From a virus, in the IMG/VR virus record IMGVR_UViG_3300043788_000114, positions 64,001 to 128,000 of that record: a stretch of 64,000 nt of DNA; one strand, 5' to 3'. Position numbers and translations under genes: made by a program. Every line of letters starts with the position of its first letter. Positions within the stretch are counted from its first letter, which is position 1. A model generated the notes under the pieces. The model made no database searches. It was not told the DNA's origin and saw nothing but the letters and a program-made list of their open reading frames with translations. Below, piece after piece: positions 4,558-13,177 of this stretch.

Positions 4558-4586
4558 TTGACATTCTGCGCCGCCCGATGTACCGT
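4558..4586 (+). promoter_or_regulatory. promoter of tRNA array 1
   Basis: TTGACA-17bp-TACCGT. Confidence 0.7.
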
Positions 4587-4596
4587 CAAAAACGTG

Positions 4597-4680
4597 ATGA
4601 CTCGATTCCATAGCGACTTCCCAGCAACAGCGGCCACGCAGCCGCAAGGTAATCGCTCGCCTGAAATGGGGTCTCAATAG
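4597..4680 (+). CDS. leader peptide of tRNA array 1 (MTRFHSDFPATAATQPQGNRSPEMGSQ)
   Basis: GTG/ATG at predicted TSS; has codons for all 12 array-1 tRNAs; its 3' end is complementary to the terminator arm. Confidence 0.75.
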   Translation: MTRFHSDFPATAATQPQGNRSPEMGSQ

Positions 4681-4713
4681 GATTTTTCATCGCAATGGAG
4701 CGAAGAAAACTAC

Positions 4714-4753
4714 GAGGCCCCGGACACCGAAAGGTTTTCGGGGCTTCTGCTTT
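4714..4753 (+). terminator. attenuator terminator of array 1
   Basis: GAGGCCCCGGA...TTCGGGGCTTC-TGCTTT with inner ACC-GAAA-GGT hairpin; weak U-tract. Confidence 0.65.
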
Positions 4754-4808: not shown

Positions 4809-5420
4809 ATGGCTGCAATCGATATGGCTGTGTATATGGCAGAGCGCCGGAAGAATCGGCGCGATAAACTGATTGCGATGTCGGGCGGGAGATGCATCAA
4901 GTGTAATTCAACCGACGATCTCAATTTTGACCACAAAGACCCGAAGGATCGCTCATTCCGATTGACTGGTAAGGCGCTGGATGGTTCGTGGGAAAAGATT
5001 CTTAAAGAGTGGCGAAAATGCCAGTTGCTTTGTAGGGTTTGTCACCTTCGGAAGACAAAAGAAAATGACGAGTACGGCGAACCGCCGAACAAGGGCGTTT
5101 CGAAATGGGGAGAAGTTCTTCCTGAGCACGGATGTGAAGCGGCTTACGCGCATGGTTGCAGATGCGATGAATGCTGTAAAGCGAGATACGAAGCGCGAGT
5201 TCGTCGCGGCGAATTGAAAGGTATCCGTGGACCACGAGGAGCAAATAATCCGAAGGGCGTCATCAAACACGGAACGCGCTCCGGATACCAAGCGGAGTTG
5301 AGACAAGGTTTAACTGCTTGCGATGAATGCAGAAAAGCGAACGCGGAAGAGACGCGGCGGCGCAAGCAAAATGAAAAGTTTGTTCCGAGGGAACCAGACG
5401 GTACGGTAGCGCACTGTTAA
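4809..5420 (+). CDS. HNH endonuclease with Zn-binding C-terminal repeats
   Basis: CIKC..LNFDHKDP...CQLLCRVCH; HG...GCRCDEC. Confidence 0.85.
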   Translation: MAAIDMAVYMAERRKNRRDKLIAMSGGRCIKCNSTDDLNFDHKDPKDRSFRLTGKALDGSWEKILKEWRKCQLLCRVCHLRKTKENDEYGEPPNKGVSKWGEVLPEHGCEAAYAHGCRCDECCKARYEARVRRGELKGIRGPRGANNPKGVIKHGTRSGYQAELRQGLTACDECRKANAEETRRRKQNEKFVPREPDGTVAHC

Positions 5421-5458
5421 TGCGACAATAACAGGTTCGACTCCTGTCCTCGGAGCCA
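5384..5458 (+). tRNA. tRNA-Asn(GTT)
   Basis: Cloverleaf, loop CTGTTAA, GGTTCGA, CCA. Confidence 0.9.
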
Positions 5459-6094: not shown

Positions 6095-6171
6095 GGTATG
6101 GTACGGCCCGGTGATGTGAGCCGCGGCGGGGCATGGCAAGGCTTGGTATGGTCAGGTAGGGTGTGGCATGG
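6095..6171 (+). repeat. period-5 GGNNN degenerate tandem repeat
   Basis: 13 of 15 consecutive pentamers start with GG. Confidence 0.75.
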
Positions 6172-6716
6172 GCAGTTTAATGCGTAGATCGGTGCTTCAG
6201 TTGAACGCTTCACTAGAAGCGATTCGCATTATTTCTGCAAAGAGGGCTTTGACTTTGTTGACTAAGGGCAAGGCCCTCACTGAGGTTTCGACGGGGATTG
6301 AGATTTATCCCGGCGTGTTCTTGCCTAGCGTGATTAGGCTTCGGCACTACGCGAGGGTTCCGCATAAGAGGCCGATTCCTTCGAGGAAGAATATCTTTGT
6401 CCGCGATGGGAACCGTTGTCTTTACTGTGGGGCCAAGGGACCGAAGGTTACTCTTGAACTTGAGCATGTTATCCCGAGGTCAAGAGGAGGACAAGGGTCG
6501 TGGGACAACTTGGTTTCGGCGTGCCACGAGTGTAACCAGAAGAAGGGTGATCGTACACCACAGGAAGCTGGAATGACTCTGATTCATCGTCCTTTGCCAG
6601 CGACGGTACACACAAACCGTTTCGTGCTTAAGCAACTTGGGGAAGAAATTTCTGAGTGGAGTCCATTTTTGTGGCAGGACAACAAGGGCGACACTCGCTT
6701 TCAGTTTGTGCATTAG
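6168..6716 (+). CDS. HNH endonuclease (McrA-like)
   Basis: VLQLNAS, PSVIRL, RDGNRCLYCG, EHVIPRSRGG, WDNLVSACHECNQKKG. Confidence 0.92.
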   Translation: MGSLMRRSVLQLNASLEAIRIISAKRALTLLTKGKALTEVSTGIEIYPGVFLPSVIRLRHYARVPHKRPIPSRKNIFVRDGNRCLYCGAKGPKVTLELEHVIPRSRGGQGSWDNLVSACHECNQKKGDRTPQEAGMTLIHRPLPATVHTNRFVLKQLGEEISEWSPFLWQDNKGDTRFQFVH

Positions 6717-7695: not shown

Positions 7696-7833
7696 TTGCG
7701 GTTGGTGTAGTTTCAGTTACTTCTTAATCAGCAGGTCACGGGTTCGAGTCCCGTCAAGCAGCAATGCTTGTAGCTCAGTTGGTAGAGCAGCCGAGGCGAA
7801 AGCCAGTACCCTGAAGCGCCTGTTCCGCCGCAA
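7696..7833 (+). ncRNA. Y-RNA-like 2 (YrlA-type, permuted tRNA domain)
   Basis: GGTGTAG...CTGTTC stem; T arm, closed acceptor, then D arm TAGCTCAGTTGGTAGAGC. Confidence 0.85.
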
Positions 7834-8028: not shown

Positions 8029-8158
8029 TCGGGTTGGTGTAGGAAACAGTTACTTCGCCTGTGGAGCGAGTAGTTCGGGTTCGAATCCCGGCGTCTTCTT
8101 CGGAAGATGTAGTGTAATGGCAGCACGCTTACGTCACTGTTCCGTCTGTTCCGCCCGA
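8029..8158 (+). ncRNA. Y-RNA-like 5 (YrlA-type with anticodon arm)
   Basis: GGTGTAG...CTGTTC; anticodon-like arm, T arm, UUCG-capped acceptor, D arm. Confidence 0.85.
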
Positions 8159-8220: not shown

Positions 8221-9645
8221 ATGCGTACAAACGTAGCAGAAAAGAAGGCGCTCATCTACACGCACGAGGGCGCAGTGGCGGTGTTCATCAACCCCGTCGA
8301 TCAGCTTCGCCGCTCTGTCATGGCGAACATGTTATGGGAGGACGAGTTCTACGAGGATGGCCAGTCCATTGCAAAGCGGATTCAGGAAACGACCGCCGAA
8401 ATCCTCAAGCAGAAGAACGGCGCGCAGACCGTGGCGGACATTGCGTTTGAGGCCCGCACGAAGATGAAGCTGCGTCACGTCCCGTTGCTTCTATTGGTTT
8501 CGCTCATCCGTGCGAAGACCGATCAGACACGGAAGGTTGTGGCGGAAGCCATCGCGCGTGTGGTCCAGCGGCCAGACGAGATGGGTGAATTGATCTCGCT
8601 CTACTGGAAGCTGAATGACAAGCGTGCCATGTTGCCGCACCAGATGAAGATCGGCCTCGCGGCGGCGTTCCAGAAGTTCGATGCCTACTCGCTCGGAAAG
8701 TGGAACTCGGATGCGGCGGCGGTGAAGCTGCGCGACGTCCTGTTCTTGACGCACGCGAAGCCGAAGGATCAGGCACAGGCAGAACTCTGGAAGAAGTTAG
8801 CGGAGAAGACGCTGGAGTCGCCGGATACGTGGGAGGTGGCTCTCAGCGGCGGTGCTGACAAGAAGGAGGCGTTCACTCGTCTGCTCGCCGAGGAAAAGCT
8901 GGGTGCGCTGGCGCTGCTCCGAAATCTGCGGAATATGCAGCAGGCCGGTGTCGACGTTGAGGCGATCCGCAAGGGTCTCGGAACGATGAAGACAGAGCGT
9001 GTTCTTCCCTTCCGCTTCATCACGGCGGCAAAGTACGCTCCGCAGTTGGAGCCTCAGCTTGAGCAGGCCATGTTCCGGTGCCTCGCAAGTCAGGAGAAGT
9101 TGACGGGCAAGACAGTCTTGATCGTCGATTGCTCGGGATCGATGCATGGCGGAATCTCTGCCAAATCCGAACTGGACCGTCTCAGCGCGGCTGCTGCATT
9201 GGCTATGCTGGTGCGTGAGGTCTGCGAGGATGTTGCCGTGTACGCGACGGCGGGTGACGATGGTCGGCGCATCCACGCGACGATGCTGGTTCCTCCGCGT
9301 CGTGGTTTCGGTTTGCGTGATCTGCTTTCCTACGAGAGCACGAGCCGCAAGATCGGCGGAGGTGGAATCTTCTTGAAGCAGGTGATTGAGTACGTCCGCA
9401 AGGAAGAGAAGGACACGGCGGACAGGATCATCGTCATCACCGACGAACAGGACTGCGATCTGGTAAACAAGCCAGCAAGCGCCAAGCCATTCGGGAAGAA
9501 CAACTACCTTATCAACGTGGCTAGCTTCAAGAACGGCATCGGCTACGGAGAGTGGGTCCACATCGACGGCTGGAGTGAGGCGATCTTGGATTACATCCAG
9601 CAGTACGAGCGGTTGCAGGAAACCGGCAATGAGATTTCTGCCTAA
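8221..9645 (+). CDS. rsr: Ro60/TROVE RNA-binding protein
   Basis: THEGA, RPDEMGE, ALLRNLRNM, VLPFRF, vWA DCSGSM, ITDEQ; adjacent Y RNAs. Confidence 0.95.
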   Translation: MRTNVAEKKALIYTHEGAVAVFINPVDQLRRSVMANMLWEDEFYEDGQSIAKRIQETTAEILKQKNGAQTVADIAFEARTKMKLRHVPLLLLVSLIRAKTDQTRKVVAEAIARVVQRPDEMGELISLYWKLNDKRAMLPHQMKIGLAAAFQKFDAYSLGKWNSDAAAVKLRDVLFLTHAKPKDQAQAELWKKLAEKTLESPDTWEVALSGGADKKEAFTRLLAEEKLGALALLRNLRNMQQAGVDVEAIRKGLGTMKTERVLPFRFITAAKYAPQLEPQLEQAMFRCLASQEKLTGKTVLIVDCSGSMHGGISAKSELDRLSAAAALAMLVREVCEDVAVYATAGDDGRRIHATMLVPPRRGFGLRDLLSYESTSRKIGGGGIFLKQVIEYVRKEEKDTADRIIVITDEQDCDLVNKPASAKPFGKNNYLINVASFKNGIGYGEWVHIDGWSEAILDYIQQYERLQETGNEISA

Positions 9646-10461: not shown

Positions 10462-10611
10462 AGCCGTGTTTCCCCCTGCATCTATTTTCTCATCGACGAT
10501 TTTTGTAAACTGCGAAATCGCCTGTATTCATGCGGTCTCCGACGTGTAAGTAATTGACAGTACAGTGTCGAAATAAATCTCTTGACAAGAATTTCCCATT
10601 TTGCGGTTAGA

Positions 10612-10971
10612 ATGTTCTGGGGGAGAAAATTGCTCATCATTCTGGCGCTTGTATGGATTCACTTTGTGTCGGATTTTCTGTTGCAGTCCGACAAGATGGC
10701 GATCAATAAATCGAAGAGTTGGAAGTGGCTCGGCATCCATTGCGTAACGTACTCGACGCCGTTCCTGATCTTCGGCTGGCGCTTCGCGCTGGTCACCCTT
10801 GCTTTCCATTTCGTGACGGATGCGATCACGTCGCGTGGCACAGCGTACCTGTGGAAGCGGGAGATGCGACACTGGTTCTTCTCGCTCATCGGCTTCGATC
10901 AGGCGATCCACCTGAGCACGCTGATTTTGACCTACCATTTTTTGCTTGCAAAGAATCTGGAATGGGTGTAG
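10612..10971 (+). CDS. DUF3307 membrane protein
   Basis: HFVSDFLLQ, HFVTD, FDQAIH. Confidence 0.85.
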   Translation: MFWGRKLLIILALVWIHFVSDFLLQSDKMAINKSKSWKWLGIHCVTYSTPFLIFGWRFALVTLAFHFVTDAITSRGTAYLWKREMRHWFFSLIGFDQAIHLSTLILTYHFLLAKNLEWV

Positions 10972-10974
10972 GCT
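10946..10974 (+). promoter_or_regulatory. promoter of tRNA array 2
   Basis: TTGCAA-17bp-TAGGCT; GTG 8 nt downstream. Confidence 0.6.
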
Positions 10975-10981
10975 GATTTTC

Positions 10982-11068
10982 GTGCAGATAAGGACCAAAT
11001 CCGTGAACACGAGAATGACCGGGAAGCGGGTCATTTGGGGAATCGTGTCCGGGGGTTTGGGAACCTAA
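10982..11068 (+). CDS. leader peptide of tRNA array 2 (MQIRTKSVNTRMTGKRVIWGIVSGGLGT)
   Basis: Leaderless GTG; has codons for all 12 array-2 tRNAs; CCGGGG complementary to terminator arm. Confidence 0.75.
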   Translation: MQIRTKSVNTRMTGKRVIWGIVSGGLGT

Positions 11069-11096
11069 TCTGCAACAAGATTCGGAACTCAAAGCA

Positions 11097-11122
11097 CCCC
11101 GGCTCAGGCCGGGGATTTTTTT
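11097..11122 (+). terminator. attenuator terminator of array 2
   Basis: CCCCGGC-TCAG-GCCGGGG-ATTTTTTT. Confidence 0.85.
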
Positions 11123-11135
11123 GGTCTTTGAAAAA

Positions 11136-11210
11136 GCGGGTTTAAGCTAGTTGGCAAACTGCCTGCCTCCAAATCAGGACTCAGGGGTTCGATTCCTCTA
11201 ACCCGCGCCA
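11136..11210 (+). tRNA. tRNA-Trp(CCA)
   Basis: Loop CTCCAAA, G73, CCA. Confidence 0.82.
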
Positions 11211-11211
11211 T

Positions 11212-11287
11212 CGCGACGTAGCTCAGGTGGTGGAGCGCCGATCTCATAAGTCGGAGGGCGAGGCTTCGAGTGCCTCCGTCGCGACCA
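11212..11287 (+). tRNA. tRNA-Met(CAT), elongator type (Ile2 not excluded)
   Basis: Loop CTCATAA, paired 1:72, ACCA. Confidence 0.85.
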
Positions 11288-11293
11288 AGTTTT

Positions 11294-11388
11294 GCCGGAA
11301 TCCTCGGGCGAGGCGCTGGGATTTATAACCCCGGTTGTTGTCGGTAGATTGCCGATGTGCGAGGGATCATACCCCTCTTCCGGCCCCA
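11294..11388 (+). tRNA. tRNA with TAT anticodon (Ile) and long variable arm
   Basis: Loop TTTATAA; V-arm GTCGGTA/TGCCGAT; short D arm; CCA. Confidence 0.7.
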
Positions 11389-11390
11389 GT

Positions 11391-11467
11391 GAGCGCGTCG
11401 TATAGCGGCTGATTATACCTGCCTCTTAAGCAGGCTGACGCTGGTTCAAATCCAGCCGCGCTCACCA
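11391..11467 (+). tRNA. tRNA-Lys(CTT)
   Basis: Loop CTCTTAA, ACCA. Confidence 0.9.
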
Positions 11468-11474
11468 AAGTTTT

Positions 11475-11560
11475 GGGATCGTACTCGAATTGGATGCAGA
11501 GACCTGACTTTTAATCAGCGGGGAAACCCAATGGGGGTTCGAGTCCCCCCGGTCCCACCA
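11475..11560 (+). tRNA. tRNA-Lys(TTT) with variable arm
   Basis: Loop CTTTTAA; extra GGG-GAAA-CCC arm; ACCA. Confidence 0.85.
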
Positions 11561-11564
11561 AGTT

Positions 11565-11641
11565 GCTCCCGTATCGGCGCTGTCTTCTAAACAGCAGGCC
11601 GTAGACGGATGACGCGGGTTCGACTCCTGCCGGGAGCGCCA
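11565..11641 (+). tRNA. non-canonical tRNA-Arg(TCT), no D arm
   Basis: Intact acceptor, anticodon and T arms; CCA. Confidence 0.75.
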
Positions 11642-11647
11642 TGTTTT

Positions 11648-11725
11648 GCCGCTGTACCTCACCCGCCTCCTAAGCGGGATTCGAGTAACTGGATGATGCC
11701 GGTTCAACTCCGGCCAGCGGCACCA
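11648..11725 (+). tRNA. non-canonical tRNA-Arg(CCT), no D arm
   Basis: Same architecture; loop CTCCTAA. Confidence 0.75.
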
Positions 11726-11730
11726 GTTTT

Positions 11731-11807
11731 GCTGCCGTACCGGGTCGCCCTCCGAAGGCGAATACCGTAGATGGAGAAGGCAGGTTCGAGTCCTGTCGGC
11801 AGCGCCA
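11731..11807 (+). tRNA. non-canonical tRNA-Arg(CCG), no D arm
   Basis: Same architecture; loop CTCCGAA. Confidence 0.75.
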
Positions 11808-11811
11808 GTTT

Positions 11812-11889
11812 GCAGGGTTAACTCAGTCCGCTCAGAGTGCCTCTCCTACAAAGAGGAAGCCGCAGGTTGAAATCCTGCACCCTGCACCA
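11812..11889 (+). tRNA. tRNA-Val(TAC)
   Basis: Loop CCTACAA (C33), ACCA. Confidence 0.85.
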
Positions 11890-11894
11890 AGTTT

Positions 11895-11969
11895 GCCGGT
11901 CAAGCACATGCGGATGTGTACTCCCTTGGTAAGGGAGAGGCAGAGAGTTCGATCCTCTCGACCGGCCCA
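11895..11969 (+). tRNA. tRNA-Thr(GGT)
   Basis: Loop TTGGTAA. Confidence 0.85.
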
Positions 11970-11973
11970 GTTT

Positions 11974-12048
11974 GCCGATGTAGCTCAATGGGAGAGCATT
12001 CCCTTGATAAGGGAAAGGTCAGTGGATCGGTACCACTCATCGGCACCA
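11974..12048 (+). tRNA. tRNA-Ile(GAT)
   Basis: Loop TTGATAA, ACCA. Confidence 0.88.
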
Positions 12049-12065
12049 AGTGTAGAATTGCAGGC

Positions 12066-12392
12066 ATGGCTCAATGGGAAGTGACTATACGCGCAAACAT
12101 TCTCATCACAGACGATGATGATGACGAAAACCAGTTTGCTGAGCAGTACACTTTCATCTGGTCCGCGCCCGACTTCATTTCGGCAGTGATGTCAGTCCAG
12201 CAGAAGCTCGACACTTTGAACGAGCGCACGAAGAAGAAGTGGGAAGAGACTGCTCGCAAAGCACGATTCATGGAAGAATACAACATCGTCGGGTTGATCG
12301 AAACCGATCACGTGCTATTCGGCGACAAGTGGATAGATGAGTTCGTAGAACGAGGCGTAATAGATCGCAATTATGCCGAAGATGAAAGTTGA
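12066..12392 (+). CDS. acidic hypothetical protein
   Basis: ORF filling the gap between tRNAs. Confidence 0.65.
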   Translation: MAQWEVTIRANILITDDDDDENQFAEQYTFIWSAPDFISAVMSVQQKLDTLNERTKKKWEETARKARFMEEYNIVGLIETDHVLFGDKWIDEFVERGVIDRNYAEDES

Positions 12393-12467
12393 GCGGGTGT
12401 CGTCCAACGGTAGGGCCACAGCCTTCCAAGCTGTTGACGAGGAGTTCGAATCTCCCCACCCGCTCCA
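12393..12467 (+). tRNA. tRNA-Gly(TCC)
   Basis: Loop CTTCCAA, TCCA. Confidence 0.9.
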
Positions 12468-12538
12468 TCACTCTCCGGAATAAAATCTGGAATAATTTGT
12501 GCTCGGAATTTCGATTTCTCCCGTGCTAAACTGCGCTC

Positions 12539-13177
12539 ATGTCTCTGAGCCTTGTCCCAATGCCGCTTCCGCCGCAGCCGTCTTTCCTGAATCCCAAGCG
12601 CAAACGACTCTGGGAAAAGTACAACGGCAAATGCCACTGGTGCGGATGCGAAACGCGGTTGGTGAATGACACAGCGCCGGATAAGGCAACCATCGATCAC
12701 ATCATCCCGCGCTACAAAGGCGGCACAAACGATCCCGCAAATCTGGTAAATTCCTGCAATCTTTGCAACAACCGGCGAAACTACGAAGATCATTTCGGAC
12801 TTGCCGAAGGCACCTTGTTAGGGAAGTACAAGGGAGGCCAGAGCAACACGGAACGCAGGGCGGCGCGGCGCGCGCAACTGAAGCACATCGCTCTAACCGG
12901 TGACGAAAAACGGGCGATCCTCGAAAGACTCGACGCTGGGAAGACACAACCACAACCACAGCCGCAAGCACCGATTCAGACGCGTCCGCCAGCGGCCCGC
13001 TACAGCACGGAGGAGGTCCTTCGCGAGCAGCGCGATCAGGCGCAGAAACGCATCGTCGAATTGCAGAAGGAATTGGATCGAGTGCAGGCCATCGCGGCGA
13101 CGCAGGAAAAAGAATTGAAGTCGATCACTGTGGTGGGGCTTATCCGGAAGCGGATCGCCGAGTGGCTTTTGTCTTGA
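12539..13177 (+). CDS. HNH endonuclease with coiled-coil tail
   Basis: CHWCG, TIDHIIPRYKGG, NLVNSCNLCNNRR. Confidence 0.9.
   Translation: MSLSLVPMPLPPQPSFLNPKRKRLWEKYNGKCHWCGCETRLVNDTAPDKATIDHIIPRYKGGTNDPANLVNSCNLCNNRRNYEDHFGLAEGTLLGKYKGGQSNTERRAARRAQLKHIALTGDEKRAILERLDAGKTQPQPQPQAPIQTRPPAARYSTEEVLREQRDQAQKRIVELQKELDRVQAIAATQEKELKSITVVGLIRKRIAEWLLS

Follow-up and report, generated by a model that had tools for sequence, protein, structure and literature searches.

Why phages carry transfer RNA (tRNA) genes is a long-standing question, and the locus described here raises a narrower one: what decides when such genes are transcribed? We analyzed bases 64001–128000 of the IMG/VR phage genome IMGVR_UViG_3300043788_000114 (138,516 bp, rated complete), a 64,000-nt stretch called the window below, whose coordinates are used throughout unless stated otherwise. 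Within it, a short unit that we call leader 2 precedes a cluster of 12 tRNA genes, array 2. From its sequence and from folding models, we consider it likely that leader 2 is a ribosome-mediated leader-peptide transcription attenuator controlling a phage tRNA operon, as a first-pass annotation of the DNA had proposed. The phage would then probably make the tRNAs of the array only when ribosomes read the leader codons slowly. The parts of the unit are as follows.

10946–10974, plus strand: promoter-like site read from the sequence, with -35 TTGCAA (10946–10951), a 17-nt spacer, and -10 TAGGCT (10969–10974)
10982–11068, plus strand: leader 2 open reading frame (ORF), 28 codons, GTG start, stop codon TAA at 11066–11068
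10983–11074 (about 10973–11085 in the minimum-energy fold), plus strand: long imperfect hairpin (segments 1:2), in which the 5′ half of the ORF pairs with its 3′ half
11049–11102, plus strand: predicted antiterminator (segments 2:3), in which 11049–11061 pairs with about 11088–11102 and takes CCCCGG of the terminator 5′ arm
11097–11122, plus strand: intrinsic terminator (segments 3:4), a stem-loop at 11097–11114 with seven G-C pairs and the loop TCAG, followed by A and T7

The order of these parts is that of leader-peptide attenuators, with the ORF between the promoter-like site and the array, and the terminator between the ORF and the first tRNA gene. The GTG start lies 7 nt past the -10 hexamer, so the messenger RNA (mRNA) would be leaderless. 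A consensus promoter scan did not list 10946–10974, because its -10 hexamer matches at only three of six positions, and gave TTGACC-N18-AAGAAT at 10927–10956 instead. A corresponding site, TTGCAG-N17-TAGGCT, stands at the same place before the homologous leader of the related phage locus L006, though the gene upstream there is a different one. The promoter, the 28 codons and stop of the leaderless ORF, the terminator, and both pairing strands lie where the first-pass annotation had placed them, and its codons are exactly as written.

Leader and array are linked by their codon content. Every one of the 12 tRNA genes downstream has a matching codon in the leader 2 ORF, a count made in the first-pass annotation and reproduced here. 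Twenty of its 28 codons fall within the 16 codons read by the array, which make up 26.5% of the codons in the 110 long ORFs of the phage. The earlier reading depended on such coverage being uncommon among random 28-codon ORFs drawn from the codon usage of the genome, and only 4 of 2,000,000 reached 12 of 12 under the same matching rule; the largest number of in-set codons in these ORFs was 19, with none at 20 or more. No in-frame 28-codon window of the 110 long ORFs reached full coverage (0/29,705). Among the six-frame stop-free windows of the 138.5-kb genome, 13 of 132,437 did, and all 13 overlap the leader ORF, starting at 10946–10982 in its frame, which makes this a single locus in the genome. 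When wobble was allowed more generally, with U34 reading both A and G, the windows at 12 of 12 rose to 64 of the 132,437, and the leader 2 ORF still ranked first. Dinucleotide-preserving shuffles of the 84 nt gave full coverage once in 100,000. Furthermore, the match is confined to one frame, as the +1 and +2 frames cover 3 and 4 of the 12 tRNAs and the reverse-strand frames cover 2, 5, and 4. The codon match of leader 2 is not a product of chance or of base composition, both of which the random-ORF, wobble-rule, and shuffle controls rule out.

Array 2 itself is composed as follows.

11136–11210, plus strand: tRNA-Trp(CCA), ARAGORN call, Rfam tRNA 48.5 bits
11212–11287, plus strand: tRNA-Met(CAT), ARAGORN call, Rfam tRNA 61.3 bits
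11294–11388, plus strand: Ile-TAT-like atypical gene with a long variable arm, from its fold, without a default ARAGORN call
11391–11467, plus strand: tRNA-Lys(CTT), ARAGORN and Rfam
11475–11560, plus strand: tRNA-Lys(TTT), ARAGORN and Rfam
11565–11641, plus strand: Arg-TCT-like atypical gene, from its fold, without a default ARAGORN call
11647–11724, plus strand: Arg-CCT-like atypical gene, from its fold, without a default ARAGORN call
11730–11807, plus strand: Arg-CCG-like atypical gene, from its fold, without a default ARAGORN call
11812–12048, plus strand: tRNA-Val(TAC), tRNA-Thr(GGT), and tRNA-Ile(GAT), ARAGORN and Rfam
12066–12392, between tRNA-Ile and tRNA-Gly: ORF for an acidic protein of 108 amino acids, no Pfam match
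12393–12467, plus strand: tRNA-Gly(TCC), the last gene of the array, ARAGORN and Rfam

Eight of the 12 tRNA genes named in the first-pass annotation are thus canonical, being called by ARAGORN at default settings in agreement with Rfam, and the other four are atypical and escape the default call. For comparison, relatives were gathered by means of the Rsr/TROVE protein (25 and then 80 viral loci), and 23 of 103 loci carried at least five tRNAs. The four atypical genes fold with a 7-bp acceptor stem, an anticodon hairpin (loop of the U33-NNN-A37 type), and a T arm, and a CCA end is visible in three of the four stretches folded. In the three Arg-like genes, a 7-nt linker replaces the D arm and the variable region measures 18–19 nt. 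The first of them (TCT) matches the Rfam tRNA-Sec family at 31.1 bits, below the threshold of 47. Their acceptor and T arms are close to those of the canonical Arg-TCT, Arg-CCT, and Arg-CCG tRNAs of L004, and canonical tRNAs with the same anticodons occupy the same array positions in L004 and L005. The Ile-TAT reading is based on the anticodon loop and on a canonical Ile-TAT at that position in L005; relaxed ARAGORN settings assign another anticodon (aac) to 11294–11388. The Ile-TAT genes of L012 and L017 (92 nt) likewise have a long variable arm. MAFFT gave no structural alignment of the atypical tRNAs. Separately, a conserved TCTTTGA(C/A)AA motif stands between the terminator T-run and tRNA-Trp (11123–11133 in the window, about 11598–11608 in L004, and about 4922–4932 in L012). 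The motif is common to the leader 2 family and L012 and resembles a -35 box, but no -10 follows it ahead of the tRNA.

Does the same arrangement occur elsewhere? Two further units of this genome have the same general build.

4559–4753: leader 1 unit before array 1, with TTGACA-N17-TACCGT, 7 nt, GTG, a 28-codon ORF (4594–4680), and a terminator
outside the window (L029): leader 0 unit before array 0, with TTGACA-N17-GAGGAT, 7 nt, GTG, a 22-codon ORF, and a terminator 9 nt before tRNA-Leu

The first-pass annotation had described leader 1 as an internal replicate, and it does share the promoter, the GTG 7 nt after the -10, and the terminator. Its ORF is rich in codons for Thr, Arg (CGN), His, Phe, Ala, Pro, Gln, Gly (GGT), and Asn, and array 1 comprises Asn, Gln, Gly, Thr, His, Ala, Phe, Pro, and Arg-ACG tRNAs. 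The leader 0 ORF consists mostly of Leu, Ser, Cys, and Tyr codons, and array 0 begins with three Leu, one Cys, four Ser, and one Tyr gene, with three of the Ser genes called only at relaxed thresholds. Farther downstream of array 0 are Asp and Glu tRNAs and a transfer-messenger RNA (tmRNA) that leader 0 does not sample, and no leader of their own was found. The tmRNA (own-genome 62838–63263, outside the window; L029 4839–5264), with the tag AEPFALPMAA, sits between array 0 and the Asp/Glu tRNAs; L012 also encodes a tmRNA.

Nine related phages share the layout with this one. Leader 2 homologues, consisting of the ORF, an upstream hairpin that overlaps the terminator, and tRNA-Trp, were found in L004, L005, L006, L030, and L034. 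In these phages and in L012, L017, L032, and L042, arrays are also preceded by leaders that belong to the other two families or are built differently, and L036 has a leader like that of L042. The order of residues in the peptide is shuffled among homologues, and the codon set is kept. Upstream of leader 2, this phage has a DUF3307 gene, L004 and L006 have Rsr, and L005 has an RtcB-like ORF. To judge from this gene order, the leader travels with the array and not with the upstream gene. The ORF in L005 (11465–12640, before leader 2) and another in L017 (about 9000–9388, before Arg tRNAs) were identified by eye, and we take both to encode RtcB-like RNA ligases.

Array specificity was analyzed with 23 leader/array pairs from 10 phages, curated partly by eye, using default ARAGORN calls and applying the codon usage of this phage to all loci. 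Coverage of the own array was 100% in 13 of the 23 pairs, and the simulated P value was below 0.06 in all 23. In frame 0, own-array codons occurred at roughly two to three times their frequency in the +1 and +2 frames. In the eight phages with at least two leaders (21 of the 23 leaders), leaders covered 209 of 221 tRNAs of their own array versus 121 of the 360 tRNAs in the remaining arrays of that phage (odds ratio 34); adding curated tRNA calls changed these counts to 233/247 and 137/409. Counted by codon in the same eight phages, 294 of 539 leader codons were cognate to the own array versus 121 of 913 for other arrays. Promoter-like sites ending 4–9 nt before the start codon accompanied 15 of the 23 curated leaders versus 170 of 6132 (2.8%) of all ATG and GTG codons in the same loci; other leaders, such as leader 2 of L006, would have a short 5′ untranslated region (UTR).

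Leaders also differ along with their arrays. In L030 and L034, array 2 includes Asp (and Glu) tRNAs, and leader 2 has GAC/GAT and GAA. Leader 2 of this phage, L005, and L006 contains no Asp or Glu codons, and that of L004 contains GAG only if its ORF starts at an upstream GTG. In array 0 of L006, Asp and Glu tRNAs come right after Tyr, and GAT and GAG are found in the leader 0 of that phage; both are missing in this phage and in L005. Arrays 1 and 2 are merged in L012 behind a single 42-codon leader that covers 25 of 25 tRNAs, and in L042 the leader covers 10 of 11 tRNAs of an array for Lys, Pro, Arg-ACG, Tyr, Gln, Thr, Cys, and Gly.

Such leaders are not universal. Among 91 uncurated small ORFs scanned upstream of tRNA runs, the curated leaders ranked at the top, and nothing convincing appeared in L009, L020, L054, L058, L059, or L063. 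Therefore, not all Rsr phages with arrays have leaders of this kind. Additionally, a 28-codon ORF rich in Leu, Ser, Cys, and Tyr codons in L017 (5075–5161) ends 20 nt before a tRNA-Ser, and our routine detected no terminator there; it is either a switchless variant or a different mechanism.

We next consider whether the RNA could act as a switch. The free RNA (10972–11125) is predicted to fold into the long hairpin and the terminator, with a minimum free energy of -69.4 kcal/mol and a z score of -6.47, and none of 200 shuffles was as stable. In this ribosome-free fold, the 1:2 hairpin holds the 5′ strand of the antiterminator. The terminator hairpin alone has a folding energy of -15.3 kcal/mol, and the terminator ends 14 nt before tRNA-Trp. 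RNAalifold on the six leader 2 sequences recovered the terminator with compensatory changes in three of its seven pairs, a count that covers the terminator only, as MAFFT did not align the antiterminator strand of leader 2 with the strand of the relatives. In the relatives, the upstream hairpin GGTCTG/CAGACC starts at or next to the stop codon and overlaps the terminator. Leader 2 of this phage has TTTG/CAAA at the corresponding pair, changed on both sides, and its ORF runs through the strand.

For constrained folding, the nascent RNA was taken as far as the terminator loop, and a 30-nt ribosome footprint was kept unpaired. With the ribosomal A site at codons 4–13, the antiterminator formed and CCCCGG of the terminator was captured, the strands 11049–11059 and 11090–11102 pairing as the first-pass annotation had written them. 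The 5′ arm of the terminator was largely free both when no ribosome was present and when one was placed at the stop codon. With the A site at codons 16–19, the program closed an outer stem around the footprint, which we judged sterically unrealistic. Codon positions 2–18 sample 11 of the 12 tRNAs, and Trp appears only at codon 19. A ribosome stalled there would probably have its leading edge at about 11049, so part of the antiterminator strand would already be covered. The first-pass statement that every match lies upstream of the antiterminator strand is thus borne out for 11 tRNAs and is borderline for Trp. Our routine detected a terminator in 20 of the 23 leaders, with the terminator arm 17–37 nt past the stop codon. 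In all 20, predicted sequestration of this arm was greater when the ribosome stood at an early or middle codon than when it had reached the stop. The difference between ribosome positions was above the shuffle mean in 20 of 20 as well, and in nine of the 20, no more than 5 of 100 shuffles reached the observed value.

These elements suggest the following sequence of events. Transcription would start at or next to the GTG at 10982, and a ribosome would load on the emerging 5′ end. If no ribosome loads, the 1:2 hairpin should fold, the 3:4 terminator should form, and transcription would end 14 nt before tRNA-Trp. A fast ribosome that reaches the TAA would cover strand 2 (11049–11061), and the terminator would form again. 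A ribosome slowed at about codons 2–18 would instead hold strand 1, leaving strand 2 free to pair with strand 3 (to 11102). Formation of this antiterminator would block the terminator and let RNA polymerase enter the 12 tRNA genes. The sensed codons would include ATA, AGG, ACC, AAA, GTG, AGA, ATG, GGG, AAG, CGG, and ATT. Since the tRNAs encoded behind the terminator read these same codons, the unit would be a demand sensor with negative feedback, in which slow decoding turns the array on and the new tRNAs turn it off. That the promoter is used, that translation is leaderless, and how strongly and in which direction the unit responds are inferred. Architecture, codon match, frame specificity, rarity, comparative data, and a predicted switch all speak in favor of the attenuator reading of the first-pass annotation; translation of the leader and readthrough dependent on stalling are predictions.

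Several observations weigh against this interpretation. The -10 hexamer is weak (3/6), and the GTG start has no Shine-Dalgarno sequence. Eight of the 28 leader codons are non-cognate to the array, and four of the 12 tRNA genes are non-canonical and may be non-functional. AGG is missing in four of the six leader 2 ORFs though Arg-CCT is present in all six arrays, ACY codons are kept in L006, L030, and L034, whose array 2 has no Thr-GGT call, and GTC and CAG stay conserved with no tRNA of the array to read them. For the anticodons that vary among the six arrays, the association with leader codons is modest (12/2 vs 11/11, p = 0.039). The pooled P values treat the pairs as more independent than they are, given that the phages are related and that the leaders were chosen partly by eye. 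Three of the 23 leaders have no terminator that our routine could detect. Finally, the effect of ribosome position in leader 2 taken alone was reached by 33 of 100 shuffles and is not significant; G-rich shuffles pair readily with the C-rich arm.

That last result is in line with a translated ORF and a real terminator that form no switch sensing stalling. The terminator could then serve as insulation or allow a fixed low readthrough, or translation of the ORF could oppose Rho or work by reverse logic in which stalling favors termination. The ribosome-free sequestration predicted for the six leader 2 homologues, which varies from 0.10 to 0.88, fits such an arrangement as well. However, a fixed insulator would not account for leaders written in the codons of their own array, or for a terminator-overlapping hairpin that, in relatives, begins at the stop codon or beside it. 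The shift with ribosome position in 20 of 20 leaders argues against it too, and we regard a unit without a switch as unlikely. An alternative of a different kind is that the ORF encodes a functional micropeptide, or that the stretch is a structured 3′ UTR or terminator of the DUF3307 gene with a coincidental codon match. The DUF3307 gene does end 11 nt before the GTG, and the region is very stably folded, as its z score indicates. Against this, homologues do not keep the residue order of the peptide, a coincidence is excluded at about 1e-5 to 2e-6, and no other window of the genome matches as well as the ORF. The 3′ UTR version is rejected because in relatives the leader and terminator stay with the array although the upstream genes differ. 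We consider this pair of explanations highly improbable.

Could the triplets instead be read by RNA alone? A non-translated sensor that binds tRNAs by pairing with their anticodon triplets, like a T-box with many specifiers, would also be located upstream of tRNA genes, would have terminator and antiterminator folds, and would contain triplets complementary to anticodons. It would not require that the triplets share one phase from start to stop, but they do, with 12 of 12 in frame 0 versus 3 and 4 in the other two forward frames. Nor would it call for a start codon 4–9 nt after a -10 box, as in 15 of the 23 leaders, or for an ORF whose length grows with the size of the array, as in L012. A search of 10972–11135 against Rfam returned no family, T-box included, at E values up to 1. 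We give this possibility almost no weight, and the ribosome-mediated attenuator remains our preferred reading.

The surroundings of leader 2 include several other genes.

8221–9645: Rsr/Ro60-like gene (TROVE and vWA domains), from domain matches
10582–10971: DUF3307 gene directly upstream of leader 2, Pfam E value 9.6e-09
4809–5420, 6168–6716, and 12539–13177: HNH endonuclease genes among the tRNA arrays

The first HNH gene (4809–5420) comes after the attenuator 1 terminator and before the tRNA that opens array 1, an Asn-GTT gene (5384–5455) seen by Rfam only. Therefore, readthrough at attenuator 1 would express the HNH gene too. On the 5′ side of the Rsr/Ro60-like gene (7731–7791 and 8032–8101) are a match to YrlA-like Y RNA, at 46.5 bits under the threshold of 69, and a 70-nt tRNA-like call (“His”). 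Rsr is accompanied by such a Y-RNA-like/tRNA-like pairing in L004, L005, and L006 as well. The closest cellular Rsr homologues (65% identity) are in metagenome-assembled genomes (MAGs) of Acidobacteriaceae (L225–L227), most others are from Terriglobia (L228–L304), and the best DNA matches to the stretch are soil metagenomes; no RNA run was listed among the data sets containing it. The Rsr homologues and the soil metagenomes point weakly to a host that is probably an acidobacterium.

It is conceivable, and we offer this tentatively, that the three attenuators are independent alarms for tRNA damage. If a host defense nuclease or decay induced by the phage took away particular host tRNAs, ribosomes would slow at just those codons in one leader, and only the matching replacement array would be switched on. 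Together with Rsr/Ro60, the Y-RNA-like gene, the tmRNA, and, in relatives, the RtcB-like ligase, they might form a self-regulating island for sensing, replacement, and repair, in which Arg tRNAs without a D arm could be nuclease-evading replacements.

Wider searches covered cultured phages, viral contigs, and genome contigs. In blastn of 10500–12500 against 50,697 phage records, only short tRNA matches were obtained, in eight records. In tblastn with Rsr, 72 phage records matched, all below 60% identity; in CcrColossus, the sole one examined, Rsr is not beside an array (the rest of that genome was unscanned). The exact 28-nt leader word had no match among viral contigs. A search based on DUF3307 gave two loci (48% identity) with a single suppressor-like tRNA each and no array. 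In these unrelated viral contigs (L002 7211–7285 and L003 5573–5647), the tRNA near the DUF3307 homologue has a CTA anticodon, is called Pyl, and resembles an amber suppressor. A loose hairpin pattern gave at least 120 listed loci, and 0 of 120 listed had a tRNA within 150 nt after the motif, which is uninformative. An Rsr profile run against genome contigs gave 80 loci, mostly Acidobacteriota MAGs, and the five best, when scanned, had no arrays.

If the attenuator reading is true, at least some phages make tRNAs on demand and not constitutively. The leaders would then provide a simple reporter for which tRNAs run short in infection, and the codon-supply and defense-evasion hypotheses could be separated by experiment. 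A natural, compact, and modular sensor of chosen tRNAs might also be of use in synthetic biology and in studies of tRNA-targeting toxins.

How does the unit compare with known systems? The trn operon of Anabaena is silent in standard culture and induced by translational stress, according to one report (PMC8421152), and is repressed by the transcription factor TrcR, according to another (PMC10272220). Like array 2, it is an accessory tRNA operon with associated HNH/homing endonuclease genes, and its expression rises when translation is impaired; unlike what we propose here, its control is described as the work of a repressor protein. Neither main text (PMC8421152 or PMC10272220) contains the words “attenuat,” “leader peptide,” or “terminator.” In mycobacteria, leaderless polycysteine short ORFs are described as cysteine-responsive attenuators (10.1101/834739). 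They are similar in being leaderless short ORFs at the 5′ end of a polycistronic transcript, and their codons reportedly determine how the operon behind them is expressed. They differ in that one amino acid is sensed and protein-coding genes are controlled. A full-text search that excluded supplements and subscription journals found no published account of leader-peptide attenuation of tRNA genes.

A T-box riboswitch (RF00230) recognizes a single uncharged tRNA by direct binding, with no translation involved, and its targets are synthetase or amino-acid genes. As in leader 2, a leader RNA makes a choice between terminator and antiterminator in answer to the state of tRNA. Unlike in a T-box, the triplets here lie in one reading frame, and the sequence has no T-box match.

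The closest parallels are the leader-peptide transcription attenuators of amino-acid operons, including trpL, hisL, and the multivalent thr and ilvGMEDA leaders. All have a short leader ORF with regulatory codons and 1:2, 2:3, and 3:4 pairings ending in an intrinsic terminator, and these pairings are predicted for leader 2. In all, a ribosome at the stop codon leads to termination and one stalled upstream leads to readthrough, which is predicted for leader 2. To our knowledge, the regulated genes in all classical leader-peptide attenuators encode enzymes of amino-acid biosynthesis or aminoacyl-tRNA synthetases. Here, tRNA genes and not biosynthetic enzymes lie behind the terminator, which sets the element apart from the described families of attenuator operons. 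If the reading is true, leader-peptide attenuation extends from the supply of amino acids to the supply of tRNAs, and the leaders are multivalent to a far greater degree than those of ilv and thr, which respond to two or three amino acids. Instead of a run of a single codon, these leaders contain 11–12 different codons (up to 25–26 in L012), mostly once or twice each. Furthermore, unlike the classical leaders, the unit is apparently carried on a leaderless mRNA, belongs to a phage, and occurs in several copies per genome that split the genetic code among them.

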